Assembly (NCBI RefSeq): GCF_000027125.1
Contig: NC_017626.1
DNA: 64,000 nt
Reading direction: 5' to 3' (one strand)
Source: Escherichia coli 042
GTDB taxonomy: Bacteria > Pseudomonadota > Gammaproteobacteria > Enterobacterales > Enterobacteriaceae
The notes under the pieces are model-generated. The model had not been told where the DNA came from, did no database searches, and saw nothing but the letters and a program-made list of their open reading frames with translations. Made by a program: the position numbers and the translations under genes. Below, piece after piece: positions 18,918 through 50,609 of this stretch (its first letter is position 1; each line of letters begins with the position of its first letter).

Positions 18918-18999
18918 CCGTTATCTCCTGATACACCTTAGATCTATAAGGCTACGCTAGCGTATCAAAACTGACAATTCATTCTATGAATGAATCTGT

Positions 19000-29736: not shown

Positions 29737-31143
29737 TTAATCCAGCCATTCAGTATGGAACACACCTTCTTTATCAATGCGCTTATAAGTATGTGCACCG
29801 AAATAGTCACGCTGTGCCTGGATCAGGTTCGCAGGCAGAACAGCGGCACGGTAGCTATCGTAATAGGCAACCGCAGCGGCGAAGGTCGGAACCGGGATAC
29901 CGTTTTGTACTGCATAAGCAACGACATCACGCAGCGCCTGCTGGTAGTCATCAGCAATTTGCTTGAAGTACGGAGCCAGCAGCAGGTTAGCGATCTGCGG
30001 ATCTTCGGCATAAGCATCGGTGATTTTCTGCAGGAACTGCGCACGGATGATGCAGCCAGCACGGAAAATCTTCGCGATTTCGCCGTAGTTCAGATCCCAG
30101 TTGTACTCTTCAGACGCGGCGCGTAGCTGAGAGAAGCCCTGAGCGTAAGAAACGATTTTGCCCAGATACAGCGCACGGCGAACTTTTTCGATGAACTCAG
30201 CCTTGTCGCCTGCTGGCTGCGCTTGCGGGCCAGAGAGAACTTTAGACGCGGCAACGCGCTGATCTTTCAGAGAAGAGATATAACGTGCAAACACAGACTC
30301 GGTTATCAGCGACAGCGGTTCGCCGAGATCCAGCGCACTCTGGCTGGTCCATTTGCCCGTACCTTTGTTTGCTGCTTCATCCAGAATCACATCAACCAGG
30401 TAGTTACCGTCTTCATCTTTTTTGGTGAAGATATCTTTGGTGATGTCGATCAGGTAGCTGCTCAGTTCACCGTTATTCCACTCGGTAAAAGTCTGCGCCA
30501 GTTCTTCGTTGGTGAGGTTCAGGCCACCTTTTAGCAGAGAATAGGCTTCAGCAATCAGCTGCATATCGCCGTATTCAATACCGTTGTGAACCATCTTCAC
30601 ATAGTGACCTGCGCCATCGGCACCAATATAGGTAACGCATGGCTCACCGTCTTCAGCTACTGCGGCGATTTTGGTCAGGATCGGTGCAACCAGTTCATAG
30701 GCTTCTTTCTGCCCACCAGGCATGATGGAAGGTCCTTTCAACGCCCCCTCTTCACCGCCGGAAACACCGGTACCGATGAAGTTAAAGCCCTCTGCTGAAA
30801 GCTCACGATTACGACGAATAGTGTCCTGGAAGAAGGTGTTACCACCATCAATGATGATGTCACCTTTATCGAGATATGGTTTGAGGGAATCAATAGCAGC
30901 ATCCGTGCCTGCACCTGCTTTCACCATTAACAGGATGCGACGAGGGGTTTCAAGAGACTCGACAAACTCTTTCACCGTGTAATAAGGAACCAGTTTCTTA
31001 CCCGGGTTCTCGGCAACAACTTCTTCAGTTTTTTCGCGGGAGCGGTTGAAGACGGAGACGGTATAACCACGGCTTTCGATGTTGAGCGCCAGGTTGCGCC
31101 CCATCACTGCCATACCGACGACGCCGATCTGTTGCTTGGACAT
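29737..31143 (-). CDS. gnd: 6-phosphogluconate dehydrogenase (decarboxylating), 468 aa
   Basis: N-terminus [30 protein letters not shown]; length. Confidence 0.95.
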
Positions 31144-31295
31144 TACATACTCCTGTCAGGTGTGGTCACCGCGACATACGCGGTTATGCTTGTAAAGCAG
31201 ATAGTATCAAACAATTAGTAATCTATGTTAGAACTTACTCAAGCTAAGTGTTCATAAATAGAACAAACTAATTCTATTCAAAGAGGACTCATTGA

Positions 31296-32531
31296 TTACA
31301 TTTCGAATGTTTTTTTAGGACGCATCTTTTTTATCATAAAAAAGCTGCAGAGAAGTAATATGAAACTAATACACTCTACAAGCAGAATCGTCATAGCAGC
31401 ACCTTTAACACCGTACTTCATTATTAAGAAATACATAGTTGGTATCGATGTCAAAATGCAAACATACGAAACATACAAACCCACTTTATAAAACCCCTGT
31501 GACTGAATTATTGCAGTTGTACCACCATTGATACATTTCACACATGCAACAATCAAGAACATCATTATCAAGAAATCATTATTAACATTAGAAATCAATA
31601 CAAAATGACCCAGGTATTTTATTATAAAGAAATAAACTAATGAACTCAGCACGCCATATGCCACAATACATAACAGGAACTGAAACACCTTAGTAAAAGC
31701 ATTTTTTTCTTGTAAGTTAATTCGGCAAAATCTTGCATAGGCAACTGTAGAAAATACAGAAGAAACCATAACCAGTGGATCAACCATCCTAAATATCTGG
31801 CCATATGCTGCAAGATCCCCTGGGGCAAATGTCTTGAGATAAAAATTATCTATACGGCTATAAATAATTACAACAACAGCTGTAAGACCTATACTTAATG
31901 TATATTTATATAAAGAAAGAATTGACATTAGCACATCAAAAGCTGACGTTCTAATAAACCTAAACTTGACACTAACGAATAGTTTTAGTGTAACCAGCGA
32001 TACGAATAATAGTTCAACACACAGGTAATCCCATGCGTTAAATTTAACGTTTAAAAAATACTGAATAGCGAAGATCGTACACGTTGCAATAGATGCAATT
32101 GCGATCGGAACCGTGAGAGATTTATTGGAATTGAGAGATTGAAAATAGCTATTTGAGAAATTAAAAAATAAAGCAACAGGTAAGGCTAACACAATAGGAA
32201 TATAGACATTATATTGATAACCCTGAACAAAAGAATACAAACAAAACAGTAGTAAAACAATTACTCCAGAAAGAATTTTTTGTGCAAACGTTACATTTAA
32301 TAGTTTTATTTTATCTGTAGAATCATTATATTTTTTTATAACAAACAGATCCACACCAAAATCAGTAACCACCCGAAGGACTTCGAGAAAACCAACTAAA
32401 AAAATGAACTCTCCGCCTACATCTTCTCCTAAGGAACGAGTAATCAGAATTATTGCAAGTGTTTTAAAACCGAAGTAACATATTTTATTAAATAGCGAAA
32501 AAATGCCATCGGAGAAAATTTCTTTGATCAT
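31296..32531 (-). CDS. wzx: Candidate O-antigen flippase Wzx, 411 aa
   Basis: AT-rich multi-pass membrane protein; N-terminal pattern ...TLAIILITRSLGEDVGGEF typical of Wzx; last gene of the cluster before gnd. Confidence 0.6.
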   Translation of the reverse strand: MIKEIFSDGIFSLFNKICYFGFKTLAIILITRSLGEDVGGEFIFLVGFLEVLRVVTDFGVDLFVIKKYNDSTDKIKLLNVTFAQKILSGVIVLLLFCLYSFVQGYQYNVYIPIVLALPVALFFNFSNSYFQSLNSNKSLTVPIAIASIATCTIFAIQYFLNVKFNAWDYLCVELLFVSLVTLKLFVSVKFRFIRTSAFDVLMSILSLYKYTLSIGLTAVVVIIYSRIDNFYLKTFAPGDLAAYGQIFRMVDPLVMVSSVFSTVAYARFCRINLQEKNAFTKVFQFLLCIVAYGVLSSLVYFFIIKYLGHFVLISNVNNDFLIMMFLIVACVKCINGGTTAIIQSQGFYKVGLYVSYVCILTSIPTMYFLIMKYGVKGAAMTILLVECISFILLLCSFFMIKKMRPKKTFEM

Positions 32532-32572
32532 GTCATGCCTACTGGTGAGATCCTGGTCGAAAAATAAACCAC

Positions 32573-33904
32573 TTACTGACCATGATAAATTTTATTTTTA
32601 ACAAGTAATGGAGATATAAGAACAATCGGCAATGATTTTAGAAGAAAAGCCAATGGCAAAATCAGTTCACCACGAACAGCATAAAAAAATCCAGATATCA
32701 TGGAGATGGCAACAAAGTTTATTATTATCCGTTGATTATTTAGTCCCCATTTAATAAAAAGCATCACCCCTGATAAATACAGTAAATAAATAATCACTCC
32801 CAAGTTTAGACTCAGCAACGATGACTCTAACAATCCTGAAGATGACAACGCAATACCAGAGGATACATCACCTAAAACAATTATTGAAAAATCTTTTGCG
32901 ATTTGTTGATCATCAAGAAAACCAAGACCGCTTAGCGGTAATACTTGTGTGAATACCACAGCGGGATGAAGTTGATCCCATCCTGATGATTGCATATCAA
33001 ACAAATTCTGCATCCCCCCAAGAGTAGAGGATAGCGAATCTAAAACAATGCCAATATAAATCATAAAATCGATTTGGTACCCTTCACGGAAATACGATAC
33101 CATCGAGAAGCATAAAAAACCGGCGATGAGAAATATTGGTTTTGAGAGTTGCTTAAATAAATTTCTTACTCTATACTCATTAGAGTACATATATAGTATA
33201 AAAATACAAATCACTGAAAAGAAAAACTTATTACGTATTCCAATAGCTAAATCAGATGCAAGTAAAACAAATGCAATAACTTTAATGTAGGTCGGTGTTT
33301 TAAAATAAAAAGTGGACAATGACATTACAACTGCAAAACCACTAATAGCACGAATAAAAAATGGAACTTGGGATAGCAATTCTTCGCTTTCAGTATAAAT
33401 TGCTAAATGCCCTTCTCCTGAATTCAATATAAACATAAGATAAATTAATATTTTGTATAATTGACACAGTGCAACAATAGAAAACAAAATATAAAATAAA
33501 CTAGTTAAATATCTTTTTTCTTCTTTTATGACAGTCTCTGTTGTTTGCAAGTAAAGGATGGAATTGATCAACATCCCCCAGATACAAATTATTTCAAACC
33601 CATGATTTGCGTTTTTAAAATAGTAAAGATAAATCGATGGCAAACCAATAATCAAAGAAAAAACGAATGCAAAAAGTAAGGTTAGTGATAAATAGCGAAC
33701 TCTATTAATATAATAATAGAACATCAAAACAACTAATAGCGCTGTAGATATAGTGGCTAAAATATCAATATACACTTGCGATACAAATGTATCCGCCCCT
33801 CCCCACAAGAAACATGAGGATAGTGAAAGAAATACAGAAAAATATATAGCCAGATGTTTAAACTGTATTTTATTGCACAATAATGAATAATATTGCTTAT
33901 GCAT
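32573..33904 (-). CDS. wzy: Candidate O-antigen polymerase Wzy, 443 aa
   Basis: Very AT-rich, highly hydrophobic multi-pass protein with no soluble domains; adjacent to wzx. Confidence 0.5.
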   Translation of the reverse strand: MHKQYYSLLCNKIQFKHLAIYFSVFLSLSSCFLWGGADTFVSQVYIDILATISTALLVVLMFYYYINRVRYLSLTLLFAFVFSLIIGLPSIYLYYFKNANHGFEIICIWGMLINSILYLQTTETVIKEEKRYLTSLFYILFSIVALCQLYKILIYLMFILNSGEGHLAIYTESEELLSQVPFFIRAISGFAVVMSLSTFYFKTPTYIKVIAFVLLASDLAIGIRNKFFFSVICIFILYMYSNEYRVRNLFKQLSKPIFLIAGFLCFSMVSYFREGYQIDFMIYIGIVLDSLSSTLGGMQNLFDMQSSGWDQLHPAVVFTQVLPLSGLGFLDDQQIAKDFSIIVLGDVSSGIALSSSGLLESSLLSLNLGVIIYLLYLSGVMLFIKWGLNNQRIIINFVAISMISGFFYAVRGELILPLAFLLKSLPIVLISPLLVKNKIYHGQ

Positions 33905-34087
33905 AGTAATTAGCTTTACTAGTGAAGTAACTCATTTGAAAAATAAGAAACAGTTAATTTTACAATCTCTTATTCGGGATGAACGCAAATAAAAACACCA
34001 ATGCTAAATATAAACAATTTATAAACAATCTATTACTGAGCGGTTAAATGACAAACCGCTCAAGAGTAGAAAAAAGTTTATATTTTT

Positions 34088-35509
34088 TTACAAAAGAGTA
34101 ACTTTATGCAAAACTTCTAACACTAATTTTTCAGCTTTTATTATGTTATCTGCTTCTGCATAGCATCGCAATTCAGGTGCGTTGCCTGACGGTCGCAAAT
34201 GGATTATTGAACCATCACTTAGTGTCAATCTTAACCCGTCAATTGTATCCACCGATTGTACATGAAGATCGACAAAGCCTATTCTTTCGATAAATTCTTG
34301 AGGATTTTCTTGAGCTGACGCGATAATGCTTTTGCTTTTGCTTGTTGCAAAATTTTGAACTCTATTTGAGTAGGTAAATCGTGGTGGCAACTCCGCCAAG
34401 AGTTTTGAAATAGTCACATTATTTTTTATAGCCAGTGCCAGTACCATTAAAGCAGGCAAAACAGCATCTCTTGTTGGAAGCGCTTTAATCATACCGCTGT
34501 TATAATTTACATCGCTACCTAAAAGATACCCACCGTTAGCCTCAAACCCTGCAACCCTATCAAAACTATTATTCAGAGAATCAAACGCTGAAATGACGTA
34601 TGGTGAACCAATTTTAGTCAGCGTTACATGATTAAACCACCCGCAAGTCTGAATAACCGTATTACAACTTACAGGTACAGCTACCGCTTCAATATTCATT
34701 GCCTTTGAGCAAAATAGTCCTAATATATCACCCCGTAACCAAACGCCATTTTCGTCAGCAACCAAAGGACGATCGCCATCACCATCGGTAGAAAAAATCA
34801 TATCGAGGTCATACTCAGATGACCAGTGTAAAGCTTTTTCTTCATCTTCTTTTGATACTGCTTCAGTATCAATAGGCACAAACTCATCACTTCTACCAAT
34901 ACTTACAACTTCAGCACCAAGCTTACTGAATATTTCTGAATAAAGATCCCGTCCCGCACTTGAATGTTCATAAATCCCGATACGTTTACCTTTAAATATA
35001 TTTGAAAAAATTGAAGTGTTTCTCTCGATATAAGTATCAGCGGCACGCTTTGAACATTGTAATTCTGGCAATACAGTTACATCAGGATACTCTTTTTCAG
35101 CATGTATAATGCTGTTCTCATTTTCTTTTGAAATTTCCCCGTCTGGACGATAGAATTTCAAACCATTTCTATCAAATGGAATATGACTTCCAGTAACCAT
35201 TATTGCAGGAATCCCATCGGCAATCGCTTGATTTGCCAAAGCTGGAGTTGGAATTACACCGTAGTAAATAGGTTTAATACTACATTCCAACAATGCTGCT
35301 GCGCAAGCTTGTGCCATAGCATAGCTGCTTGGGCGATTATCTATTGCGAGCGCAACCTCTTTAAAAGAAAAATCCTTCATCATTACATCGATAAAAGCAT
35401 AAGTGAATGCAGCACACACGTTGGGTGTAAAATCTTTCACTAATCCACGAGCACCACTTGTACCAAATGCAATTCCGCTATTTTTAATTACATCATTGGT
35501 AATATTCAT
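34088..35509 (-). CDS. manB: Phosphohexomutase, ManB-like (start at M13 of the ORF preferred, 5 nt after the manC stop; the ORF could extend to 35545)
   Basis: Phosphoserine-loop motif [11 protein letters not shown] (variant of TASHNP); tightly coupled to manC; GAGGA upstream of ATG 35509. Confidence 0.65.
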
Positions 35510-35513
35510 ATAA

Positions 35514-36929
35514 TTATTTATCCTCAACACGACCATATTTATCACTTAGGCGCACAATATCATCATCACCTAGATATACACCCGACTGAATCTCAATTAC
35601 TTCTAATGGTATCTTTCCTGGATTTTCCAAGGTATGAACTGTGCCAATTGGTATGAAAGTTGACTCATTTTCAGTGACGAAAAAAGTGCGTTCGCCGCAA
35701 GTCACCTTTGCAGTACCAGCGACAACCACCCAATGCTCAGCTCGATGATGATGCATTTGTGTTGAGAGACATTCACCAGGCTTAACGGTAATACGCTTTA
35801 CCTGATAACGGTCGCCACGTTCTACAGAATCATAACGTCCCCAAGGACGATAGACTTCGCGATGGGATATATGTTCGCTACGTTTTTGCTTTTTAAGAAT
35901 TTCGACAATCTTCTTTATGTCTTGTACGTTGTCTTGCTGTGCTACCAGGAGCGCATCTTTAGTTTGAACTATAATAAGGTTATTAACTCCTACAGTGCTG
36001 ATCAGTGAACCTTCAGAGTAAATGTAGTTGTTCCTGCTGTCATAGTTAATTACATCGCCATGCGATACGTTTTCATGTTCATCTTTCTCTGATATTTCCC
36101 AAAGTGATGTCCATGAACCGATGTCACTCCAGTCAGCATCAAGTGGAATAACTACACAATCCTGAGTTTTTTCCATTACCGCATAATCAATTGACTCATC
36201 GGGACATTCTGCAAAGACATCAGAATTTAATCTGATAAAATCTAGATCAGTACTAGCACTGGAAAGCGACTCTTTACACGCTGCTAAAATATCAGGGCGA
36301 AATTTTTTCAATTCATCTAAATATACGCTCGCCTTGAACATGAACATACCACTATTCCACAAATAGCATTTTTGTTCGAGATAATTTTTAGCCGTTTCTA
36401 AATCAGGTTTTTCGACGAAAGAATTTACTTTAAATACAGAGTTTTTAACTTGTTCGCCCTTTTTAATATAGCCATACCCAGTTTCAGGTTTGGTCGGGAC
36501 GATGCCAAAAGTCACTAACTTATTGTCAACGGACTCTTGTTCTGCAGCTAAAACAGCTGCATGGAAGGCTTCAATATCCTGAATAGCATGGTCAGCAGCA
36601 AGAACCAGCATATGATGATCGCCATGGAGTTCTAGAGACTTTAGAGCAGCCAGCGCAACGGCGGGCGCAGTATTTCTACCTACAGGTTCTAGAATAATCT
36701 GGAAGTCATCCACACCGAACTGTCGCAATTGTTCAGCAACAATAAATCTATGCTCATTATTGCTAACAATGACAGGAGGCAAACAATTTAATCCATCAAG
36801 TCTCTTCAACGTTTCCTGGAGCAAACTATTTTCATTAATCAATGATAAAAATTGTTTCGGGTATAACGAACGCGAAAGAGGCCATAAGCGAGTACCAGAA
36901 CCACCGGCCATAATAATTGGGATAATCAT
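35514..36929 (-). CDS. manC: Mannose-1-phosphate guanylyltransferase / mannose-6-phosphate isomerase, 471 aa
   Basis: N-terminus [28 protein letters not shown]; C-terminal cupin region; roughly 60 percent identical by eye to the cpsB product in the same window. Confidence 0.85.
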
Positions 36930-36930
36930 T

Positions 36931-38133
36931 TTATTTAACAGACTCCTTAATTTTCTGGATATATGGGCTCAATTTAGCTTCCCATGAAAAATTCTCACCG
37001 ATAAACTTTTTCGCAACTAATGCTGTTTCGGTATATTTATCCAGATTTGTTATAAAATAATTTAATACACGTAAATATTCTTCTTTTGTATTGGCAACAT
37101 AAATCTCCTTACCCTCCTCTGCTCCCAAGCCTTCAAAGCCTACAGTAGAAGAGATACAAGGTAATCCCAACGCCATATATTCAAGTACCTTATTTTGGAT
37201 ACCTGCCCCTAATCTAATAGGACATACACCAATATGCCCATCAGCTGCTGCATAAGTTATGCTATCAACTTCACCTGTGACAACAACGCCAGGCTGGCTT
37301 TCTAACCAACTCTTATCTTTATCTGTAATACGTCCGATGACCTTAAATTCAAAATTACCATGCTTGTTAAGAAATGGTAAAACTTCCTTGGTGAACCATC
37401 TCACACCATCCATATTTTGCAAAGAATATAAATTACCTATAAATACAAGGGTTATCTTTTTATCTTTAGCTATTTTTCGTTCTGAAAAAGGTAAGCTAAC
37501 GGCATCAACACCATTTCCACAGACTAATACATTATTCGGACGGTCTGGATATAAATAATCGGAGTCAACCTGTGATACCAAAGTAGTCAAGCTGAACTTG
37601 TTATTTATAGTTCGCTCATATCGTTCGAGTCTTTTTTGTTCAAAAGAATATACAAATGTTTTTAAACTCAATAAAGATGCTTTTTCCTTTACTCGTTTAT
37701 AATTAAGTGAAATGGCATCGGTCATCTCTAAAAAATTTATATCTTTATTCTCTTTCACATAATCACCAACCCTTATCAAATGTGAAAGAGTTGCAGAATG
37801 TTCAGGTAATAACTGCTTAAGTTTATCTTCAAATTCTTTAGATTTATAATACCCAATCTGTAGGGGAGTATTTGAAAACAAAGAGAATATGACATTTAAA
37901 ATAGATTTTTTCTTTGAAAGATATACTCTGTGAACACTACTAAAAACTTCACGATCATATTCATAGTTGAGCTCTTCGCGTTTATCACACAGACTCAGCA
38001 ACGTAAGATCATAATGCTTAGACAGTTCTTTACAGATCTTATAGATACGTAATCGATCCCCACCAATGACAGGAAACGGGAACCGTGGAGTCAAAACTAA
38101 TATCTGTTTCTTATTTATATCAATATTACTCAT
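36931..38133 (-). CDS. Glycosyltransferase, GT4 (family 1) type, 400 aa
   Basis: C-terminal motif [26 protein letters not shown] (E-x7-E-like); AT-rich. Confidence 0.75.
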
Positions 38134-39163
38134 AAATCTTTCTCAATTCATTTTCAAATAAAATATGTTCATGCAGAGCTTTCCTTTCGACACTGGGTGA
38201 ATTATCTACCAAGTATGAATAGACTTCATAATACTCAGAATAGTAAGTATAAAAGAAAATATTCGAATCCTTTTGTTCGCGGAAAGCAGAGATCCGTGTG
38301 CATATAACATTTTTGCATGTGAGTTTTGCTTCAGCTAAAGTCCTTCCATACCCCTCGGCAAGCGAATGAGCCCAAACAATTTTAGAATTACAATATAGTT
38401 TGACGACTTCCTCTAAAGAAACAAAACCAATAATTTCAATTTCTTTATCTGTATCCCGCCCATCAATTAAGTCGTTAACCTTGCTAATACCATTCCCACA
38501 ACCTAATATTTTTAATGGTATTCTTTCTTCCCTTGGGATTGAAAAATAATAGTCCAGAGCTGTGCCTAGATCCTTATTATCCCCTAAACCTGAAACTAGA
38601 AGTAAATATCCAAGATCTTTTATTTCGGTAACATTAGCAATTTTCTCAAATGAGAAAAATGGATTTGGGAGCAGGATAGATTCTATACACTTAAATAGCG
38701 ATATTCTCTTAGATACTCGCTGAGTGCTTTGAGAAATAAATATTACTTTCTTTGCTAAAAAAGATGAAAAATAAATACAGACTTTCACATAAATGGCAGC
38801 AAGATTTCGTTTATTTTTCTTAAGACTAATGAAGTCATGAATTATAACAATTGCCTTACCTAATAACAAGTCAATGATGGAACTACTATTATAGGGATAT
38901 ATATTATACTTAGTTCTATAAAATATACCCATAATTGGTATTAAAAGCTGCTCTACTATTATAAAAAGAACATTCAGAAACCATGAAGGCAGCTTATGGA
39001 ATGCTTTTGGACATGCAACATAAATAACCTGAACATTATTGTCTCTTAACTTTTGCACAAGTTCAGAAGTATAGATCGGTATTCCTCTTTTCAAAATACC
39101 ATCAAAAAAATTATTTACAATTACTTTCATGTTTGCTCTTAAGTTTATTTCAGATATTATCAA
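38126..39163 (-). CDS. Glycosyltransferase, GT4-like, 345 aa; first gene of the O-antigen operon
   Basis: C-terminal SLAEGYGRTLAEAKLTCKNVI motif; overlaps the downstream glycosyltransferase by 8 nt. Confidence 0.65.
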   Translation of the reverse strand: MIISEINLRANMKVIVNNFFDGILKRGIPIYTSELVQKLRDNNVQVIYVACPKAFHKLPSWFLNVLFIIVEQLLIPIMGIFYRTKYNIYPYNSSSIIDLLLGKAIVIIHDFISLKKNKRNLAAIYVKVCIYFSSFLAKKVIFISQSTQRVSKRISLFKCIESILLPNPFFSFEKIANVTEIKDLGYLLLVSGLGDNKDLGTALDYYFSIPREERIPLKILGCGNGISKVNDLIDGRDTDKEIEIIGFVSLEEVVKLYCNSKIVWAHSLAEGYGRTLAEAKLTCKNVICTRISAFREQKDSNIFFYTYYSEYYEVYSYLVDNSPSVERKALHEHILFENELRKIYE

Positions 39164-39229
39164 TAGTATAAAAATAGTCAGGATTATTATTTCTTATTTT
39201 GAGAACGCATCATATAAACACAATCTTAC

Positions 39230-39268
39230 CACGCTACCGCCCCTGGCTTAACAGCTACCAGTGCACTA
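39230..39268 (-). promoter_or_regulatory. JUMPstart element with ops (GGCGGTAGCGTG on the transcribed strand) in the O-antigen operon leader
   Basis: Plus strand cacgctaccgcccctggcttaacagctaccagtgcacta; ops reverse complement at 39230-39241; near-identical copy upstream of wza. Confidence 0.7.
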
Positions 39269-39523
39269 GCAAAATGCCAAAGATGTACCCCGCCCCGCTA
39301 GCTATCGCAAAGCTATCTTAAATTCAAACGCCAATTGTCTTACCAAATGCTGTCAGAAACAAGGATAAATCCAACAAAAAATAGATTAAACTTAGTAGGT
39401 TAACTCGTTGTTATTCTTTGTTTTAAAAAGAAAAACGACAGTAACATTCCTTTGTTTAAAGCATAGACGCCGGGATGTTAGCTGCCGCTATTTATCTAAA
39501 TTATTGTTACATTGGCTTGGGAT

Positions 39524-40417
39524 CTATTCCCCGAGCAACTTCTCAATGCTCTTACGGAACTTTGGCCCTTCCTTCAGGTTGCGCAGTCCATACTTCACAA
39601 ACGCCTGCATATAGCCCATTTTTTTACCGCAGTCGTAGCTGTCGCCGGTCATCAGCATGGCATCAACGGACTGTTTTTTCGCCAGTTCGGCAATAGCATC
39701 AGTCAGCTGAATACGCCCCCATGCACCAGGTTGCGTGCGTTCAAGTTCCGGCCAAATATCGGCAGAAAGCACATAGCGACCAACGGCCATGATGTCTGAG
39801 TCCAGCGTCTGCGGCTGATCCGGTTTTTCGATAAATTCGACGATGCGGCTGACTTTACCTTCACGATCCAGTGGTTCTTTGGTCTGAATGACGGAGTATT
39901 CAGAGAGGTCACCCGGCATACGTTTTGCCAGCACCTGGCTGCGGCCCGTTTCGTTGAAGCGCGCAATCATGGCAGCAAGGTTATAGCGTAGCGGATCGGC
40001 GCTGGCGTCATCGATAACAACGTCTGGCAGTACCACGACAAATGGGTTGTCACCAATGGCAGGTCGTGCACATAAAATGGAGTGGCCCAAACCTAAAGGT
40101 TCGCCCTGACGCACGTTCATAATGGTCACGCCCGGCGGACAGATGGACTGCACTTCCGCCAGTAGTTGACGCTTCACGCGCTGTTCAAGGAGAGATTCTA
40201 ATTCATAAGAGGTGTCGAAGTGGTTTTCGACCGCGTTCTTGGACGCGTGAGTTACCAGGAGGATTTCTTTGATCCCTGCAGCCACAATCTCGTCAACAAT
40301 GTACTGAATCATTGGCTTGTCGACGATCGGTAGCATCTCTTTGGGAATCGCCTTAGTGGCAGGCAACATATGCATCCCAAGACCCGCTACAGGAATAACT
40401 GCTTTTAAATTCGTCAT
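39524..40417 (-). CDS. galF: UTP-glucose-1-phosphate uridylyltransferase paralogue GalF, 297 aa
   Basis: Start set at [14 protein letters not shown]; position between the O-antigen and colanic acid clusters. Confidence 0.9.
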
Positions 40418-40591
40418 TATTTCATCCACCTGTAAAATGGTTGCTGAATTATAGCTTGTTCGATTTTTTTCGCCAGCATCAATTACCCTGAATTGATTAC
40501 TGAATTACTTGTGATGTTACGCCGCTTCGTTGTGGATTGCAGTAGCATTGTTCCTAAGTATGGCTCCATTTTTCCAGGAATGGTCGCAAAT

Positions 40592-41986
40592 CTACTCTCT
40601 CCGTTCTGGCAATCTAAAGTTAATCTTTTCCACATTAACAATATGGTGATTAACCCTGTCGATATCGACGGAGCTTTGCCCTCTTTCATTCACCGCATGA
40701 ACATTTGCAAGAGACAGCAGTGTTTCTTTTTTCGCCATAAAGACGCCGCGAACGTCTTTGCGCATGTCGAAGTTCATGCTCAATGCGGGTCCAACAGAGG
40801 ATTCCTGCATCACTTTGATATTTCGTATAAAAAGATGTTGCGGTTTGTTGTGTAACTCCAACGAGGCACGCTTCATCTCAATGTTAGTCAGTGCAACAAA
40901 GGAGACAGCATTCCCGGCAGAGATTTGGATACCGCGCAATTTGTAAGCAAGGTGGGTGTTATCCAGCTGAATATTATTCACTCGGAAATTTTGCGGTATC
41001 GAGAGATATTTGCCTTTAATTACCCCATAACCGATTAACATCCCGGCGCTATTAATCATTTCAATATTATCAATCACGAAATTGTCACAACCGTAAATAG
41101 CGACCGTGGCGTTATCAATACCTGCTTTCTTACTGAAATCCGGCGTGATATTGCGGGCTTTGATATTACGAATAACAAAATGTTTACCATTTTCAACATG
41201 GATCAGTTGTCGACAATCCGATCCCGTGATATTCGCCACGACAAAGTTTTTCACTGCCTGGTCTTCCGGGTAGTTATTATCATAAGTACTCCCCGCAAGG
41301 CCTATGCCGATTCCCCAGTTGATTTTGCCGTTGGTACAGTTGATGCGCTCGATGATGTGGTCGGAGATCAAAATATCACTGTCGTTAATCGCCACGTTCC
41401 ATTCAATGGCGTCCCCCTGTAAGTCGCTGAACTTACAATTGGTGATGTTGGCACCGATAATCTGGTTATGAAATCCCTGACGTAAGATGGCGTAATTAGC
41501 GTGGCTGACAGTGAGGTTATCGATGGTCAGGTTGCGCATGACCCGTTTGTTTTTGCCGCCGATATAAATCTGCGTTACTGGGCCAAAGCCGCTCATCGCC
41601 AGCCCTTTGATGGTGCAGTCAGAGCCGCGCACATCCAGGGTGATGTTATGCATACTGCCGCCCTCCTCCCCTGTCACCTGGCTGCCGTCTTGTAAGACAA
41701 AACGCCCTCTGCCGTTGCCGCGCAGGCTTCCAAGGATGTGTAACGTTTTGCCAGGAGGAATGAAGATGCCGGTGTTGATATTTTCACAAACCAATCCGGC
41801 AGGCACGACGACCGTTTGCCCTTCGCTGAAGGCTTGTTTAAATGAAGCAATCCAGTCGTGTGGGTTGTAGTCGTTAATGTTAACGCTTTGCCGGGCAGGA
41901 AGTGCTCGGGCGAAAGGCGTATGAAGGAAGGCAAGCGCCGAGCTTACCGTCAGGAAAGTGCGTCGGGAGAGTTTTTTAAATGGCAT
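40592..41986 (-). CDS. wcaM: Colanic acid biosynthesis protein WcaM, 464 aa
   Basis: Length identical to K-12; Tat-like signal (SRRTFL); last gene of the cluster. Confidence 0.9.
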
Positions 41987-41996
41987 ACGTTCTCCT

Positions 41997-43217
41997 CTAT
42001 AAAGCTTGCAGCAAGCTGGCGAGTTCTCGATTAATCACCTGCTGGTTAAAATCATGTTCGACTTTTTCGCGCGCACGTTTGATAACCGGAGCCAGTTCGT
42101 CGGTGTCCAGTTGGCTAAACGCCGCCAGTCGTTGCGCCAGTGCACGGGCATCGTTCTCAGGCACCAGCCAGCCGGATTTGTCAGCCTCCACCAGTTCCGG
42201 TATTCCGCTATGCAGAGTAGAAACCACCGGAATGCCGACCGCCATCGCTTCCATTAGCGCCACCGGAATGCCTTCCATATCACCATCCGCACCTGTAACC
42301 GATGGCAACAGGAAGACATCCGCGTCGTCGAGCATCGCTTTCACTTCGTGGCTCGGTTTAAAGCCCGGCATCTCCACCACATCTTCCAGTTGATATTGTT
42401 CGATGAGGGTGCGCAGGCGTCGTTCCCACGGGCCAATGCCGAGGATGCGATAGCGAAATGCCACGCCCTGCTCTTTCAACTGACGGCAGGATTCGATCGC
42501 CACATGCAGGCCTTTTTTCTCGGTTAAGCGTGCGACGGAGATGATTTCCAGCGGTATTGCGGGCGCTTTCACCGGACGCGGGCTAAAACGCGTCATGTCC
42601 ACGCCCATGCGCGATACGGCAATTTTTTCCCTCGGGCAGCCCATTTTTTGCAGCCTTCCGGCCCAGAGATCGCTGATCGGTAGCATCAAATCGCCACGGC
42701 GAAACAGTTGCTGATATTCGGGGGTGTAGTGGTTGAGCACTTCCCGACTGGAGATATCAATGCCGTGGAAGATAGTAGCGATTTTGCCGCGAATGACACC
42801 CAGTTCCCGTAGTTTTGCTGCGGTTACCCCCGCCGGGCCAAAATGAGCGATGAACACATCGGCATAAAATGGTGTTGCGACCTGGCCGCAAATGGCAGAC
42901 AAAATCAGGTTCCGCGACTCGGCACCATAGCGTTTGAGGTTGAGCGCCTGCCAGGTATTTTTGCGATGAATGCCGCGTAAGGTCTGGCTGGCGCGGTGGC
43001 GCAGCTTCGCCACTTTGCCCGTAGGTTCGTCCTGTAACCAGCGGGTTCTGGCGGCAAGGTTGTATTTCGTCCATGCCGCGTGGGTGTTTTGTGTGTCGCC
43101 TTTTTGCAGCGCGACAATCTCCACCTCAAATCCCATATCAATAAACGCAGTGATTTGGTTGAGAACGAAGGTTTCCGACGACAGCGGAAATTTCAGTAAA
43201 AAGAAGCCGACCTTCAT
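41997..43217 (-). CDS. wcaL: Colanic acid glycosyltransferase WcaL, 406 aa
   Basis: Length and order as in K-12. Confidence 0.9.
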
Positions 43218-44494
43218 TTCACCTCCCCGATGCGTTCAAGCACAGATTGCACCATCTGCATTCCCGTCTGACGTTCGCGACTGACGGCTTCGTTAAGTCG
43301 CGCGTTCAGCGCCGGAAGTTGGCCTAAGGTATCCGCAACCATCGCTTGCAGGCTGCCGTCCAGTAAATGACGGATATCAATTGCCATCTCTGGCAGCCCC
43401 AGCTGCTGCATAATCCCGGCGGATTTATGTTCATAGTTGATGGCAATCGCCGGAGTGGCAAAGTTCATCGAGATAATGGCTGAGTGCAGGCGCGTACCGA
43501 CGGTGAGTTCACTGGCACCGAGAATTTTGCCCATTTCCAGATCATTGAGTTCATCCATCACTACGTGGTAACGGGCAGGATCGCAGATGTGCTGGCGCAG
43601 ATTGAGCGCCACCATGCGGTCGTCTTTGTTATAGCTGTCGATGCCCGTACAGGTGGAGAGCGCAATGACCTGATAGCCTTCGTCGAGAATGCGATTGACC
43701 ACCCCGGCAAAGGCTTTTTCATACGCTTGTTGGGTGGTGCCGAGACGTTTGTCGAACGGTGCCAGTTCGCGCAGGGTAATTGCCACCGTTTTCTGTTGTG
43801 CGGCAACGTCCAGCCAGTGTTGAACGGCATAGCTGGCGGTGAAGTCTTCTGTGTGGTGATCGACCAGCCACGCGGTATCGACGCCATGTTCAACTTTTGC
43901 AGTGGAGATATTGCTGCGTTTCATCAAATCAAGGCTGACCGATTCGCGCAGGATCAGCGCATCGCAGTGACCAAAAACGTAGTTCGCCAGTTGGTTAAAT
44001 TGCTCATCCTGGAAGGGGCCGACGCTGTGACCAATCATAAACAGCGGCTTTTTCGCCATAAATGTGCAAAGCGCATGTTCAAACTGTGGCACGCCGTAGA
44101 GATCGACAAAAAACGATCCGCCGACCTGAATAATGGCGTCGTAACCTGACAGCAGGCGCACGAAGTCAGTGAATCCCTGGGCGATGGCGATATTACGCAA
44201 CTTGCCAGTGTCGGTGACGCGTGAGAGCAATACCTGATGCTGGTAGCGGCGACGGAGGACTTTTTTAACGCGCCCGACAACGCCCGCCACGCTGTTGTGT
44301 TGTTTCATTTGCAGGAACAGTGGATCGCCCATTACCGGGCGGTTGAGCAGCCAGGAAGAACTGACCGGATAGCGGCTCATCACGTCCACTTCGGCATGTG
44401 GATTGAGGATGTTGATGGCATCAAGTAAGCCGCGCAGGATGGCGCTGTCGCCACGATTGCCGCAAGTGTGGTTGCCCAGAATAAGTAATTTCAT
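43214..44494 (-). CDS. wcaK: Colanic acid pyruvyl transferase WcaK, 426 aa
   Basis: Length and order as in K-12. Confidence 0.9.
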   Translation of the reverse strand: MKLLILGNHTCGNRGDSAILRGLLDAINILNPHAEVDVMSRYPVSSSWLLNRPVMGDPLFLQMKQHNSVAGVVGRVKKVLRRRYQHQVLLSRVTDTGKLRNIAIAQGFTDFVRLLSGYDAIIQVGGSFFVDLYGVPQFEHALCTFMAKKPLFMIGHSVGPFQDEQFNQLANYVFGHCDALILRESVSLDLMKRSNISTAKVEHGVDTAWLVDHHTEDFTASYAVQHWLDVAAQQKTVAITLRELAPFDKRLGTTQQAYEKAFAGVVNRILDEGYQVIALSTCTGIDSYNKDDRMVALNLRQHICDPARYHVVMDELNDLEMGKILGASELTVGTRLHSAIISMNFATPAIAINYEHKSAGIMQQLGLPEMAIDIRHLLDGSLQAMVADTLGQLPALNARLNEAVSRERQTGMQMVQSVLERIGEVK

Positions 44495-44555
44495 TTTTTC
44501 CTCATAAATTTGATGCCAGGTGAAGCTGCGTTTGTTTTGTTCGTTGCCGCTTTTT

Positions 44556-44742
44556 GCCTGATGCGACGCTGGCGCGTCTTATCAGGCCTACAAGACCCGA
44601 GCACAGAACCGTAGGCCGGATAAGGCGTTCACGCCGCATCCGGCATTCAGTGCCTGATGCGACGCTGACGCGTCTTATCAGGCCTACAGGTCCCGAGCAC
44701 AGAACCGTAGGACGGATAAGGCGTTTTACGCCGCATCCGGCA
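44556..44742. repeat. Tandem pair of BIME units (each a REP pair) between wcaK and wzxC
   Basis: gcctgatgcgacgctg[g/a]cgcgtcttatcaggcctaca...gtagg[c/a]cggataaggcgtt...cgccgcatccggca present twice, about 96 bp apart. Confidence 0.7.
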
Positions 44743-44769
44743 ACCATTGCCGGAACCGAAAACAACAAC

Positions 44770-46248
44770 TCACCCCGCCCGTAAAAGCATTTTCATTTTT
44801 TCGCTGCGACAAAACTGACGCTTCACTTCCACCACCAGCGGATGGCGCGACAGCACAATCATCACTACAAACGCCAGCACGCCTGCGGCTATTTGCACCG
44901 CCAGCAGCATCCCCAGCGCCAGTTGCCCTTTCAGCACAATGCCCAGCGCATAACTGACCACCAGCGTCGGCAGCGAGAGATAAAACGGCAGCCATAAACT
45001 CAGGATGTACTGGCGATAACTGGAACCGAGCACCGGTTTAATCATCACGAAGTAACTCAGAATGGTGTTGATAATCTGCACCAGCAGGAAGCCGAGCGTG
45101 ACGCCGATTGCGCCCGCCATTTGCCCACCTATAACAATCGCCGGAATAAACAGAAAGGTTTTGAATACGTTGAATTTAAAGCTGATATCGACCCGCGCTT
45201 TCGCCATCAGCAGCGAACCAATCGGGTTCCCCACTGAGCGCAGCAGCCCCACCACACACAGTAAATGCAGCACCGGAATAATGCTGTTCCACTTCTCACC
45301 AAAGACCAGCGGTACAAAGTTATTCGACACCACCATCAGCCCCAGCAGCGCCGGAAAGTTGATAATCCCCACCACCGACAGCAGCTTGTAGAAGTTGACG
45401 CGCAGCTTTTCGGTGTCGTCCTGAATTTTGGCAAATGCCGGAAACAACACGCGGGTGATGATCGGGTTCAGCTTCATCGGCGGCACAACGGCCACGTTGT
45501 ACGCCAGGTTGTATCCCCCTGCCACGCCCGCGCCAAGAATACGCGCCAGCACCAGCGTTGAAAGGTTGGTGTTGAGATAGTTGATGATGCTGTCCGCCGT
45601 CAGCCAGGCACCAAAACGTAAGTTCGGTGCTACCGACGCCAGCGAGAAGTGCAGACCGGGACGATAAATTTTGCGGCCAAAGTAGCCAAACAGCAGCGTT
45701 CTTACCGTACTATTGACCAGATAACCGAGGATCGCGGTCATCGCCAGCGGCCAGAAATGGGCGCTAACCACAGTAAAAGTGAAGCCCGCCAGCACCGCGC
45801 TGGTTTCGATCATGCCGATTTTGTTGAACTCCAGCTCCTTCTGCATCAACGCGCGGAACTGTTGCCCGTGGGGGATCACCACAAACGCCAGCGACAATGT
45901 TTTAATCAACGGTGCCAGGTCCGGGTTATTCAGCACGTCGCCGATGAGATCACTCAACAAAAACACCGCCACGCACACCACGATCCCCAGCCCGACGTTC
46001 AGCCAGTACAGCGTGGTGAGTTCAAGGTGGCTGATTTCTTTTCGCTGAATAATCGAGTTAGCGATACCGAAGTCAGAAAGCGTATCTGCCAGCGCGATAA
46101 TCACCAGCGACACAGTCAGCAGGCCGAACTGGTGGTTGTCGATAATCCGCGCCAGCACGGTCATCTGTACCAGCCCGAGGCCGATGATGATCACCGTGGC
46201 AATCGCCGACCACTTCGCGCCGCTGATGGTTTTTTCACGTAAGCTCAT
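44770..46248 (-). CDS. wzxC: Colanic acid repeat-unit flippase WzxC, 492 aa
   Basis: Length and order as in K-12; multi-pass membrane protein. Confidence 0.9.
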   Translation of the reverse strand: MSLREKTISGAKWSAIATVIIIGLGLVQMTVLARIIDNHQFGLLTVSLVIIALADTLSDFGIANSIIQRKEISHLELTTLYWLNVGLGIVVCVAVFLLSDLIGDVLNNPDLAPLIKTLSLAFVVIPHGQQFRALMQKELEFNKIGMIETSAVLAGFTFTVVSAHFWPLAMTAILGYLVNSTVRTLLFGYFGRKIYRPGLHFSLASVAPNLRFGAWLTADSIINYLNTNLSTLVLARILGAGVAGGYNLAYNVAVVPPMKLNPIITRVLFPAFAKIQDDTEKLRVNFYKLLSVVGIINFPALLGLMVVSNNFVPLVFGEKWNSIIPVLHLLCVVGLLRSVGNPIGSLLMAKARVDISFKFNVFKTFLFIPAIVIGGQMAGAIGVTLGFLLVQIINTILSYFVMIKPVLGSSYRQYILSLWLPFYLSLPTLVVSYALGIVLKGQLALGMLLAVQIAAGVLAFVVMIVLSRHPLVVEVKRQFCRSEKMKMLLRAG

Positions 46249-46249
46249 A

Positions 46250-47644
46250 TCAATATGCCGCTTTGTTAACGAAGCCTTTGAATACCGTCAGGAAAACGAT
46301 TTTGATATCGAACCAGACGCTCCATTCGCGGATGTACTCAAGGTCGAACTCGACGCGTTTTTCCATTTTCTCCAGCGTGTCGGTTTCGCCGCGCCAGCCA
46401 TTAATCTGCGCCCAGCCGGTAATGCCCGGTTTCACTTTATGGCGCAGCATGTAGCCTTCAATGAGCTGGCGATACTGTTCGTTATGCGCCACCGCGTGCG
46501 GACGTGGACCCACAATCGACATCCCCCCGGTCAGCACATTGATAAACTGCGGCAGTTCATCCAGCGAGGTGCGGCGCAGAAAGTTCCCCACTTTGGTGAC
46601 GCGCGGATCGTTCTGCGTCGCCTGGGTCACCACTTTGTCGTTCTCCATCACTTTCATGGAACGGAACTTCCACACTTTGATCGGCTTGCCATCCATGCCG
46701 TAGCGAGTCTGGCGGAAAATAACCGGCCCAGGTGAGCTCAGTTTCACCGCCAGCGCAATGCAGCACAGCACCGGGGAGATCAGCAGCAGGATAAGCGTCG
46801 CCAGCACAATGTCTTCCGCACGTTTGAGCAGGCGGTTAACCCCGGAAAGCGGCGTGTCGTAAAGCGGCACCACCGGAACGCCGTTCATCTCTTCAAGACG
46901 TGAATGAAGAATGTTGAAGGTAAAAACATCGGGGATCAGCAGCACCGAACAGGTGGTGTCCGCCAGTTGATGGACCAGTTTTTTCACTCGCGCGCCGTCG
47001 CACATCTGCATCGCGATATAGACGTTATGAATCTTGCCCGCTTTTGCATCCTCTACCAGCTGTTGCAGATTGCCCGCCCAGTCGTTAGAAACGCCGCCCG
47101 GTTTTGGGTCGTGGTATACGCCCACCACTTCAAACCCTAACCACGGCTGATTACGGAAGCTCTCCATCAGCATTTGTCCGGCGGCTAAATCCCCCGCCAC
47201 CGCGACCATCCGCTTGTTATAGCCATGATTACGCAGCCAGCCCGCCCCAATGCGAATACATGAACGGCAAACCACCAGTCCGATGCTGGTCAGCCCATAC
47301 AACGCCAGCCAGATTTTCAGTTGCGTGTCGAAATCATTGTTGAACGCCACCAGTCCGGCGCTGAAAATCACGCTTAAGGTCCAGTTTTGTAGCAACAGAG
47401 CAAATTCTGTCGCTGCCCGAACACCGCGCCATGAGCGATAAAAATCGGTGATGCCGCCCAGCATCTGGAACACCACCAGCGTAATCAGCGCCACCAACAG
47501 GTGCATGTAGAGGAATGACAGTCCGCTGACTTCGCAAACCAGCCATAGTCCGGCAAACATGATGGTGATATCTGAAAAGCGTTGCACCATAGAGATTAAC
47601 GATGCATTGGTTTTCGCTCGCTCGCGCTTTTTTAGATTTGTCAT
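46250..47644 (-). CDS. wcaJ: UDP-glucose:undecaprenyl-phosphate glucose-1-phosphate transferase WcaJ, 464 aa
   Basis: Length and order as in K-12. Confidence 0.9.
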   Translation of the reverse strand: MTNLKKRERAKTNASLISMVQRFSDITIMFAGLWLVCEVSGLSFLYMHLLVALITLVVFQMLGGITDFYRSWRGVRAATEFALLLQNWTLSVIFSAGLVAFNNDFDTQLKIWLALYGLTSIGLVVCRSCIRIGAGWLRNHGYNKRMVAVAGDLAAGQMLMESFRNQPWLGFEVVGVYHDPKPGGVSNDWAGNLQQLVEDAKAGKIHNVYIAMQMCDGARVKKLVHQLADTTCSVLLIPDVFTFNILHSRLEEMNGVPVVPLYDTPLSGVNRLLKRAEDIVLATLILLLISPVLCCIALAVKLSSPGPVIFRQTRYGMDGKPIKVWKFRSMKVMENDKVVTQATQNDPRVTKVGNFLRRTSLDELPQFINVLTGGMSIVGPRPHAVAHNEQYRQLIEGYMLRHKVKPGITGWAQINGWRGETDTLEKMEKRVEFDLEYIREWSVWFDIKIVFLTVFKGFVNKAAY

Positions 47645-47698
47645 CGTTGTTCCTGTTATTAGCCCCTTACCCGCAGTGGGGTAAGGGAAGATCCGACA

Positions 47699-49069
47699 TT
47701 ACTCGTTCAGCAACGTCAGCAGAGTTCGCGTTCTCGCTTCCATCAGCGGCACATCACCGCGTGATTCCACATTCAACCGCACCACCGGTTCGGTGTTGGA
47801 GGAGCGCAGGTTAAAGCGCCAGTCGGCAAAGGTCATACTGATGCCATCGGTGCGATCCACCGCCAGCGCCTCGCGGCTAAAATGCTGTTCCACGCGATTA
47901 ATTGCCTCAACGGGTTGCGCCAGTTTGCTGTTGATCTCACCGCTTGCCGGAAACGCTGCCATCCGGTCGCGCACCAGTTCGCCCAGCGTTTTCCCTTTCA
48001 GGCACACCAGTTCGGCGACCAGCAGCCACGGGATCATGCCGCTGTCGCAGTAGGCAAAATCACGGAAGTAATGGTGGGCGCTCATTTCGCCACCGTAGAT
48101 GGCGTCTTCCTTGCGCATCCGTTCTTTAATAAAGGCGTGTCCGGTTTTCGACATTACCGGGGTGCCGCCTGCGGCCGTCACCACATCAACGGTGTTCCAG
48201 GAGAGACGCGGATCGTGGATGATCTTCGCGCCGGGATTTTTTTCGAGGAACGCTTCTGCCAGCAGGCCGACAATGTAGTAGCCCTCGATAAACTGCCCTT
48301 TTTCGTCAAACAGAAAACAGCGGTCAAAATCGCCATCAAAGGCAATGCCCATATCCGCGCCGTGTTTGATGACCGCATTGCGGGTGTCGTCGCGGCATTC
48401 CGGCAGCAATGGATTAGGAATACCGTTGGGGAAATTGCCGTCCGGCGTGTTGTGTACTTTGATGAATTCCACCGGTGCGCCGAGGGCGTTAAAGCGGGCT
48501 TCGATGGCGTCCACCACCGGACCCGCCGCGCCGTTCCCGGAGTTAATCACCAGCTTGAGCGGCGTGAGGTTTTTGACGTTGATATAACCGAACAGGTGAT
48601 CAACGTAAGCGTCACGCAGATTGATTTGCTGATAGCGACCGCGTTTGGTTTCATCGACAGGAGGGAAGTCATTGGCTTCTGCCAGGCGCTGGACGTCGCG
48701 CAGTCCGGTATCACCGCTGATCGGGCGAGCCCCTTCGCGCACCAGCTTCATGCCGTTGTAATCCATCGGGTTATGGCTGGCGGTAACTTCGATGCCGCCA
48801 TCCACGCCGAGATGGAACGTGGCGAAATAAATCTCTTCGGTGCCGGACATGCCAATATCCAGCACATCGACGCCCGCATCCTGTAAACCTTTCGCCAGCG
48901 CCAGTTTTAAGGTTTCGCTGGTGAGGCGGACATCACCGCCTAACACAATAGTTTTCGGTTTGAGAAATTCGCCATAGGCGCGACCAATGCGCCAGGCAAT
49001 ATTTTCATTCAGTTCTTCGCCTAATTTCCCGCGAATATCATAGGCTTTAAAGCAGGTTAATTTTTTCAT
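47699..49069 (-). CDS. cpsG: Phosphomannomutase CpsG (ManB), 456 aa
   Basis: Start set at [14 protein letters not shown]; active-site loop TASHNP. Confidence 0.9.
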
Positions 49070-49170
49070 ATCGTTACCCTTTTTCAGGCAATAGTTGGCC
49101 CTGACCGAAACGGCCAATTTTGTTTTTGTCGTTATTTACCGGAGAATTAATCCGGTTGATTATTCAACTG

Positions 49171-50607
49171 CTACACCCGTCCGTAGCGATCCGCGAAGCG
49201 CACCACATCATCCTCTTCGAGGTAAGACCCGGAGCGCACTTCAATTAAATCGAGTGGAATTTTCCCCGGGTTTTCCAGGCAGTGCGTCGCCCCCAGCGGA
49301 ATATAAATCGACTCGTTTTCACCAAGCAGTTTGATATCACCGTCAATAGTGACTTTTGCCGTTCCTGCGACAACCACCCAGTGTTCCGCGCGGTGATGGT
49401 GCATCTGTACCGACAAACCCTCGCCCGGTTTCACGGTGATGCGTTTCACCTGGTAGCGGTCGCCCGCGTCGATAGAGTCATATTTGCCCCACGGGCGATA
49501 CACTTCGCGATGCACCCGATGCTCATGGCGACCGTCGGCTTTGATCTGCTCGACCACTTTTTTCACATCCTGCACCGCGTTACGGTCGGCAATCAGCACC
49601 GCATCTTTGGTCTGCACCACTACCAGATCTTTCACCCCGACGGTGGTGACCAGGCCAGATTCGGCGTACACATAGCTGTTTTCAGTTTTGTGATTAATCA
49701 CATCGCCGTGGCAAACGTTGCCCTCGGCGGTGTGGGCGCTGATCTCCCATAATGAAGACCAGGAACCGACATCGCTCCAGCCCGCATCCATCGGCACCAC
49801 AACGGCATCTGCCGTACGTTCCATGACCGCGTAATCCACAGACTCTTCCGGGCAGGCGAGAAACGCTTCTTCATCCACACGAATAAAATCGAGATCCGGA
49901 TCGACGGCGCTCATCGCTTTTTCACAGGCGTCGAGAATATCCGGGCGATATTTTTTCAGCTCTTCTAGATAGCGTCCGGCGCGGAACAGGAACATACCGC
50001 TGTTCCAGTAATATTCGCCGCTTGCCACATAGGCCTGAGCGGTTTCCAGATTCGGTTTTTCGACAAACTGCGCCACTTCAAAGGCCACCGTATCCTGCTC
50101 ACCCGCCGACACTTCACCGCGACGAATATAGCCATATCCGGTTTCAGGTAGATCCGGCACAATGCCGAAGGTCACCAGCTTGCCTGCTTCGGCATACGGC
50201 ATGGCGTTACGCACGGCGGCACGGAACGCGTCTTCGTCGGCAATCACATGATCCGCTGCCAGCACCAGCATTAATGGGTCGCTCTCCGGGCTATGACGTT
50301 TTGCCGCCAGCGCCGCCAGCGCAATGGCAGGTGCAGTGTTACGCCCTGCCGGTTCGAGAATAATGTTCTCGGTGAGTTTGTTCAGTTGACGCAGCTGTTC
50401 CGCGACAATAAAGCGGTGCTGCTCATTGCAAATCACCACCGGGCTTTCGCACTCCACGCCGTTCAGGCGGCAGATGGTGGTTTGCAGCATGGTGAGATCG
50501 CCTTTCAGGCATAAAAACTGCTTGGGGTAAAGTACGCGGGAAAGCGGCCATAAGCGGCTCCCGGAGCCACCTGCCATCACAACTGGATAGAGTTTCGACT
50601 GCGCCAT
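49171..50607 (-). CDS. cpsB: Mannose-1-phosphate guanylyltransferase CpsB (ManC), 478 aa
   Basis: N-terminus ...[18 protein letters not shown]; length as in K-12. Confidence 0.9.
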
Positions 50608-50609
50608 AA

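Follow-up and report, generated by a model that had tools for sequence, protein, structure and literature searches.

The window, a 64-kb stretch of Escherichia coli 042 DNA analysed here as a whole, carries an O-antigen gene cluster on its minus strand, for which open reading frames and RefSeq annotation give the order galF, two glycosyltransferases, manC, manB, wzy, wzx, gnd, ugd, wzzB; on the far side of galF is the colanic-acid cluster, with cpsB and cpsG among its genes. The gene studied here, manB (34088..35509, minus strand), is a complete open reading frame, and its translation of 473 residues, together with the RefSeq protein WP_001027885.1, marks it as a putative 'type-2', ManB/cd03088-like phosphomannomutase. 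Both the N-terminus and the phosphoserine loop that an earlier note on this DNA had quoted for 34088-35509 are present in the translated reading frame, the loop as residues 106-116 of the 473-aa mutase, and the strand, which the note had not given, is minus. Ahead of manB on the same strand lie manC (35514..36929), which by a TIGR01479 score of 755 bits (cut-off 373) and 60% identity to CpsB is predicted to encode a bifunctional mannose-1-phosphate guanylyltransferase / mannose-6-phosphate isomerase of 471 aa; a glycosyltransferase family 4 gene (36931..38133), read from its reading frame and the RefSeq annotation of an identical cluster; and a further glycosyltransferase gene (38126..39163) that is the first in the O-antigen operon. 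As the RefSeq CDS of this first gene is 1005 bp long, its true start is probably internal to the open reading frame. Beyond manB follow, also from reading frames and RefSeq, the O-antigen polymerase gene wzy (32573..33904, minus strand) and the flippase gene wzx (31296..32531, minus strand), both of the O17/O44/O73/O77/O106 family.

The manB ATG (35509) is located 4 nt past the manC stop codon (TAA 35516-35514), with GAGGA upstream of the ATG in the junction sequence, and this start agrees both with the RefSeq CDS length in the identical cluster and with the N-termini of homologues. Longer starts lie in frame within the 3' end of manC (ATG 35536 and GTG 35545, the mechanically called reading frame being 12 codons longer, 35509-35545, minus strand), and these are unsupported by the alignment of homologues. 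The 4-nt distance from the manC stop to the manB ATG makes translational coupling of the two genes likely. At the DNA level manB is 100% identical to the gene for WP_001027885.1, annotated 'phosphomannomutase', in E. coli strains with the O17/O44/O73/O77/O106 wzx and wzy.

In the spacer between manB and wzy we observed a perfect 8-bp hairpin, GAGCGGTT-N8-AACCGCTC (window 34038-34061, minus strand), 27 nt past the manB stop; a 63-nt stretch with this hairpin folds at -17.5 kcal/mol (z = -4.6 vs shuffles). It is not followed by a run of T, and the corresponding spacer of Salmonella, which is not conserved, lacks it. The hairpin may serve to stabilize or process mRNA, or it may be a small repeat.

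The spacer ahead of O-antigen operons is the usual site of the JUMPstart/RfaH antitermination signal (ops), and between galF and the first glycosyltransferase gene there is an exact match to the ops element, GGCGGTAG (39234..39241, minus strand), which we infer to be this signal for the O-antigen operon. Three exact matches to GGCGGTAG occur in the 64-kb window (39234-39241, 50840-50847 and 63550-63557, all on the minus strand) against 1.2 expected, so the argument rests on position upstream of the operon and not on the count. The match at 50840-50847 falls inside wcaI and is probably due to chance, and that at 63550-63557 may mark a JUMPstart belonging to the colanic-acid operon. Scans with promoter and terminator consensus patterns over 31000-39700 yielded counts no higher than in shuffles and added no sub-structure to the operon.

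Base composition sets the O-antigen cluster apart from the colanic-acid genes. Genes of the O-antigen cluster have 31-40% GC, with manB at 38% and a GC3 of 26%, compared to 54-56% for the colanic-acid genes wcaL to wcaI and to 55.5% (GC3 65%) for cpsG; the genes adjoining the O-antigen cluster have 52% (galF) and 47% (wcaM). The best reading of these sequence data is that manB would have come by lateral transfer with the low-GC O-antigen cluster, not via duplication of cpsG.

The colanic-acid region shows a peculiarity of its own. Among 5426 complete E. coli genomes, none matches the stretch from wcaM to wcaI (window 40400-52000) at more than 97.8% identity, or cpsG alone at more than 98.1%, whereas several carry the O-antigen manB at 100% identity. 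Either the lineage of the window lies outside the 5426-genome collection or this region is a mosaic. The same 40400-52000 query matched 10-57 places per genome, and it must therefore contain a dispersed short repeat.

Family placement and comparison with CpsG

All four Pfam PGM_PMM domains (I-IV) are found above their gathering thresholds in the manB product, which corresponds to the four-domain layout of the alpha-D-phosphohexomutases. The phosphoserine loop, T106-G-S108-H109-I-P111, follows the superfamily pattern (T/S)-x-S-H-x-P; the metal loop, D242-G-D244-G-D246-R247, follows DxDxDR; the sugar loop, G321-F-E323-A-N325-G-G, contains the superfamily sugar-loop Glu; and the phosphate loop, R439-P-S441-G-N-A-P-E-L-R448, follows RxSxxxPxxR. 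These four loops are common to all ten aligned clade members, and Ser108-His109, DGDGDR, the sugar-loop Glu and RxSxxxPxxR are also conserved with CpsG. The Ser, His and Pro of the phosphoserine loop are invariant in the alignment including CpsG, and Ile stands where Asn is usual (SHNP).

The window offers a direct comparison, as it also holds the colanic-acid genes for a phosphomannomutase of the PMM/PGM type, cpsG (47699..49069, minus strand; NF011943 1054 bits vs a cut-off of 801; TASHNP at residue 96), and for a mannose-1-phosphate guanylyltransferase, cpsB (49171..50607, minus strand; NF012004 1116 bits vs a cut-off of 859). BLASTP aligned the manB product with CpsG of the window over 431 residues at 24% identity (E 9e-10), and because all four PGM_PMM domains are found in both mutases, their relation is far beyond chance; ManC and CpsB of the window share 60% identity. 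The earlier note had proposed that the mutase diverges from CpsG in its N-terminus and in the TASHNP loop, and alignment bears this out, in that no close CpsG homology was found at 24% identity. Its description of the adjacent manC as clearly a paralogue of CpsB agrees with the 60% identity and with the TIGR01479 score above cut-off, and its view that the mutase is no recent duplicate of cpsG is upheld by the 24% identity, by a phmmer score of 21 bits and by composition (GC 38% and GC3 26% vs 55.5% and 65%).

None of the curated NCBIfam models reaches its cut-off with the manB product. The best match is archaeal GlmM (TIGR03990, Arch_GlmM; 170 bits, cut-off 439), followed by GlmM (TIGR01455; 110 bits, cut-off 447.6), PMM/PGM (NF007088; 61 bits, cut-off 618) and CpsG (NF011943; 22 bits, cut-off 801); Pgm (NF005737 type) gave no match. 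When the manB product was compared with individual proteins using phmmer, the scores were 21 bits with E. coli CpsG, 74 with E. coli GlmM and 10 with E. coli Pgm, compared to 323 with the Brucella relative and 556-809 with gammaproteobacterial relatives. These scores show that the manB product belongs to a branch of its own, apart from the CpsG type, GlmM and Pgm.

The ranking of GlmM among these scores raises the alternative of a GlmM-like phosphoglucosamine mutase, which would make the GlcN-1-P needed for GlcNAc in the O unit. The two highest NCBIfam scores are both GlmM models (Arch_GlmM 170 and glmM 110 bits), the phmmer score with E. coli GlmM exceeds that with CpsG (74 vs 21 bits), and GlmM structures rank next after 4HJH among the PDB matches. 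Against curated cut-offs of 439 and 447, however, these scores are far too low, the sugar loop reads GFEANGG in place of GAENSGH of E. coli GlmM and the phosphate loop SGNAPE in place of SGTEP, and the conserved partner gene is manC. Moreover, glmM is an essential housekeeping gene of E. coli and UDP-GlcNAc a housekeeping precursor, which also counts against this reading. We consider a phosphoglucosamine mutase exceedingly improbable and retain the assignment to a separate branch.

The closest solved structure is 4HJH, a Brucella protein named 'Phosphomannomutase', which matches residues 10-463 at E 1.1e-95 and shares TGSHIP, GFEANGG and the phosphate loop. A solved structure this close (E 1e-95, full length) settles the question of the fold. 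The motifs TGSHIP, GFEANGG and SGNAPELR are identical in the members from E. coli, Salmonella, Aeromonas and Brucella. Both 4HJH and the manB product presumably fall into subfamily cd03088, a placement that follows the names used in our sources. In a published table of NCBI CDD subfamilies (review), ManB cd03088, 'phosphomannomutase', stands apart from PMM/PGM (cd03089) and from GlmM (cd05802). Judged by these sequence comparisons, the manB product belongs to the 'ManB' branch (Brucella ManBcore / 4HJH type), which appears to have been anciently separated from the CpsG/AlgC branch of PMM/PGM enzymes.

Distribution of the ManB branch and its linkage to manC

A sequence-database search with the manB product scored at least 8000 clusters, and the nearest among the matches listed, which are named 'phosphomannomutase', come from Salmonella (75%) and from Citrobacter, Aeromonas, Photobacterium and Vibrio (62-66%). 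Using the 4HJH sequence as query, at least 8000 clusters were found at E below 1e-60, mostly alphaproteobacterial among the matches listed. In 93 of 5426 complete E. coli genomes manB was present at >=99% identity, chromosomal in every case, and a less stringent DNA search added 239 complete genomes that carry the manB type at a nucleotide identity of 60-80%, for a ManB-type total of 332 out of 5426, each of them annotated phosphomannomutase. CpsG-type sequences were found at 6538 places in 5183 genomes, which includes roughly 1350 second copies, such as those of O157:H7 and the O9 rfbK. In E. coli the ManB branch is a minority type, yet common.

The mutases are bimodal in their similarity to the manB product, with the gammaproteobacterial members of the branch 54-75% identical, Brucella 39-40% and CpsG 21-25%. 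With either type of mutase alongside, ManC stays within a single continuous family, at 45-83% identity to ManC of the window.

The ManB-type gene sits beside or near manC in many O-antigen clusters making mannose- or fucose-containing glycans, and in all nine of the additional E. coli loci inspected it lies in an O-antigen-type cluster with manC. It directly adjoins manC in the O17 group, O59, O115, O126 (with gmd-fcl), O179, an untyped chromosomal cluster and a plasmid cluster, and one glycosyltransferase gene stands between the two in a gmd-fcl-gmm-manC-GT2-manB block that is found in O159, in an untyped E. coli cluster and in Aeromonas. Linkage to manC or other GDP-mannose genes was thus seen at 12 of the 13 distinct loci examined, the exception being Catenovulum. 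A published survey counted 56 O-antigen clusters of E. coli with manB and manC.

On the chromosome of Catenovulum adriaticum (our locus L008, 8001-9425) the ManB-branch homologue, 63% identical, is flanked by genes for a beta-CASP/metallo-beta-lactamase and a Y1 transposase, and no manC or polysaccharide genes were found within 8 kb of it. The plasmid cluster lies on the 52-kb E. coli plasmid p21AR0133D (L017, NZ_JBSAOW010000005.1, 8029-19042) and is O-antigen-like, comprising rfbA, a flippase, glycosyltransferases, manC, a ManB-branch manB and an acyltransferase. A block of IS1, IS66, IS5 and ISAs1 adjoins it, and this locus shows the manC-manB module travelling on mobile DNA. Other E. coli O clusters of the ManB type also have IS elements within them or at their borders (an ISAs1 pseudogene and IS1B; L002, 16307-17446, and L003, 7849-8546), and in several ManB-type clusters frameshifts are annotated in wzx, wzy or glycosyltransferase genes (O179 in L011; the O159 wzy in L010).

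Predicted function and known systems

Genetic evidence on the branch comes from Brucella. The Brucella gene of the 4HJH type lies immediately upstream of manC and outside any O-antigen cluster, and its protein has TGSHIP from residue 102, DGDADR at 242, GFEANGG at 320 and the phosphate loop at 436. The published sites of manBcore (BMEII0899) are Gly103, the catalytic residue 104, metal-binding residues 242/244/246 and substrate-binding residues 322/324/326 and 436-445; since the loop positions of the 4HJH-type protein equal these sites, manBcore belongs to the ManB branch. Disruption of manBcore results in deep-rough (R3) LPS, a separate pgm gene being independently required, and the authors of that work concluded that manBcore and the contiguous manC supply mannose for the Brucella core and for the perosamine O-polysaccharide. 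A second Brucella manB (BMEI1396, in the wbk O-polysaccharide region) is dispensable, its disruption producing no rough phenotype.

The large named branch, the solved structure, the Brucella genetics and the linkage to manC together make the substrate of the manB product well predicted, namely mannose phosphates, a substrate range that we infer. The earlier note had treated the protein as a divergent mutase with an uncertain substrate: this holds insofar as no curated equivalog model claims the protein, but the suggestion of an unusual or uncertain enzyme is not sustained given the branch, 4HJH, the Brucella genetics and the manC linkage.

A different activity, mainly that of a phosphoglucomutase or of a bifunctional PMM/PGM with a cellular glucose-phosphate role, could be envisaged, for example as a source of the Glc-1-P behind the glucose side branches in O17/O44/O73/O106. 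Glucose-6-phosphate is present in the 4HJH crystal, one paper names 4HJH a phosphoglucomutase, and PMMs of the superfamily are often bifunctional (e.g., Coxiella CBU0294 and AlgC). On the other hand, E. coli already has a housekeeping pgm, and in all clusters examined but one it is manC, not genes of the galU/galF type, that is found beside or near manB. A Brucella pgm mutant shows an LPS core defect despite an intact manBcore, so that this member of the clade does not replace Pgm in vivo. The O units of the O17 group share the backbone ->6)-Man-(a1->2)-Man-(a1->2)-Man-(b1->3)-GlcNAc-(a1->, also described as common to Salmonella O:6,14, and according to a review the O-antigen gene cluster accounts for this backbone only and does not determine the glucose side branches. 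With three mannoses in the backbone, GDP-mannose is needed, and it is the sole non-housekeeping precursor that the cluster must supply. A principal role in glucose-phosphate metabolism is therefore quite improbable in our estimation, and a phosphomannomutase, perhaps with some phosphoglucomutase activity, remains the preferred assignment.

Selection on the gene bears on whether it is functional at all. Compared with its Salmonella orthologue, manB has a pN of 0.15 and a pS of 0.74; as synonymous sites are saturated, we give no dN/dS number and use the contrast of pN to pS alone. This contrast reflects purifying selection, with strong constraint on manB within the enterobacteria. A decaying or catalytically dead copy, redundant with cpsG of the same genome, might be considered in view of the intact second phosphomannomutase gene 12 kb off, of the dispensability of one of the two Brucella manB genes and of the Asn-to-Ile change in the catalytic loop, which is our caveat on function. 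However, the reading frame is intact and >=99% identical in 93 genomes, clade members from Brucella to E. coli all retain the catalytic and ligand-binding loops, and non-synonymous divergence from the Salmonella orthologue is five-fold below a saturated synonymous divergence. The Ile, moreover, is found throughout the clade, also in the manBcore type of Brucella, the loss of which produces a phenotype. We give next to no credence to a dead copy.

Our best explanation is that, in the E. coli O17/O44/O73/O77/O106 group, manB is very probably the laterally acquired phosphomannomutase gene of the O-antigen cluster, with a product that would feed ManC. Sequence, motifs, family placement, synteny and purifying selection are the observations behind this reading, from which catalytic activity, preference for mannose and regulatory logic would follow. 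The reaction steps proposed for manB draw on established phosphohexomutase chemistry. Phospho-Ser108, with Mg2+ held by Asp242/244/246, would phosphorylate mannose-6-phosphate at O1; the mannose-1,6-bisphosphate intermediate would then reorient, and Ser108 would regain the 6-phosphate as mannose-1-phosphate is released. The adjacent ManC would convert mannose-1-phosphate to GDP-mannose for the mannosyltransferases that build the three-mannose backbone. Placement of the manC-manB pair in an ops-bearing O-antigen operon may free the GDP-mannose supply from the separately regulated colanic-acid genes. In the literature we found no enzyme assay or kinetics for the manB product or for any enterobacterial member of the clade.

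A more far-reaching idea is that the ManB branch is a strictly mannose-specific lineage, characterized by Ile in SHxP and by Asn for Ser in the sugar loop, that has repeatedly displaced the CpsG type in O-antigen clusters, next to one unbroken ManC family, with the possible advantage of being too divergent to recombine with cpsG; we regard this as speculative and unlikely. As it stands, manB is an already annotated, ordinary phosphomannomutase gene of a published O-antigen cluster, from a large named branch with a solved structure, and in this sense it is already known. The result matters mainly for annotation and confirms that two types of phosphomannomutase, of ancient divergence, are used with one family of ManC in the O-antigen clusters of E. 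coli. The minority (ManB) type is without a curated NCBIfam equivalog HMM, and a ManB-type mutase could serve in the glycoengineering of GDP-mannose or GDP-fucose.

Two further proteins were considered in connection with the branch and set aside. The published cloning primer for VC0242, the V. cholerae O1 RfbB/ManB, encodes V-K-E-L-T-C-F, which is the N-terminus of the CpsG type and speaks against membership in the ManB branch. Coxiella CBU0294, an assayed PMM, is AlgC-like, with 55% identity to AlgC, and was not taken as evidence for the ManB branch.

Among known systems, the separation of the ManB subfamily (cd03088) from PMM/PGM and GlmM in the CDD matches the three-way split that we obtained with HMM and phmmer comparisons. 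Brucella ManBcore/4HJH resembles the manB product in its full-length homology (39-40% identity), in TGSHIP, DGDxDR, GFEANGG and the phosphate loop, and in having manC adjoining; it is also alike in role, being needed for mannose-derived LPS, on evidence that is genetic and not enzymatic. It differs in gene order, which is manB-manC in Brucella and manC-manB in E. coli 042, in about 60% sequence divergence, and in its housekeeping-like neighbourhood, whereas the gene of the window lies in an O-antigen cluster. CpsG, O9 RfbK, V. cholerae O1 ManB and P. aeruginosa AlgC (cd03089) share with the manB product the superfamily, the four domains, the predicted reaction, a ManC partner and the supply of GDP-mannose for surface polysaccharides, yet the CpsG type is only 21-25% identical and has TASHNP, GEMSAH and RSSNTEP in place of the TGSHIP, FEANGG and RPSGNAPE of the manB product. 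For the ManB of Salmonella enterica, from a putative O:6,14-type cluster, the spacer between manB and wzy has diverged and is without the E. coli hairpin, but the protein is 75% identical and the cluster has the same gene order, GT-GT-manC-manB-wzy-wzx, between galF and gnd.
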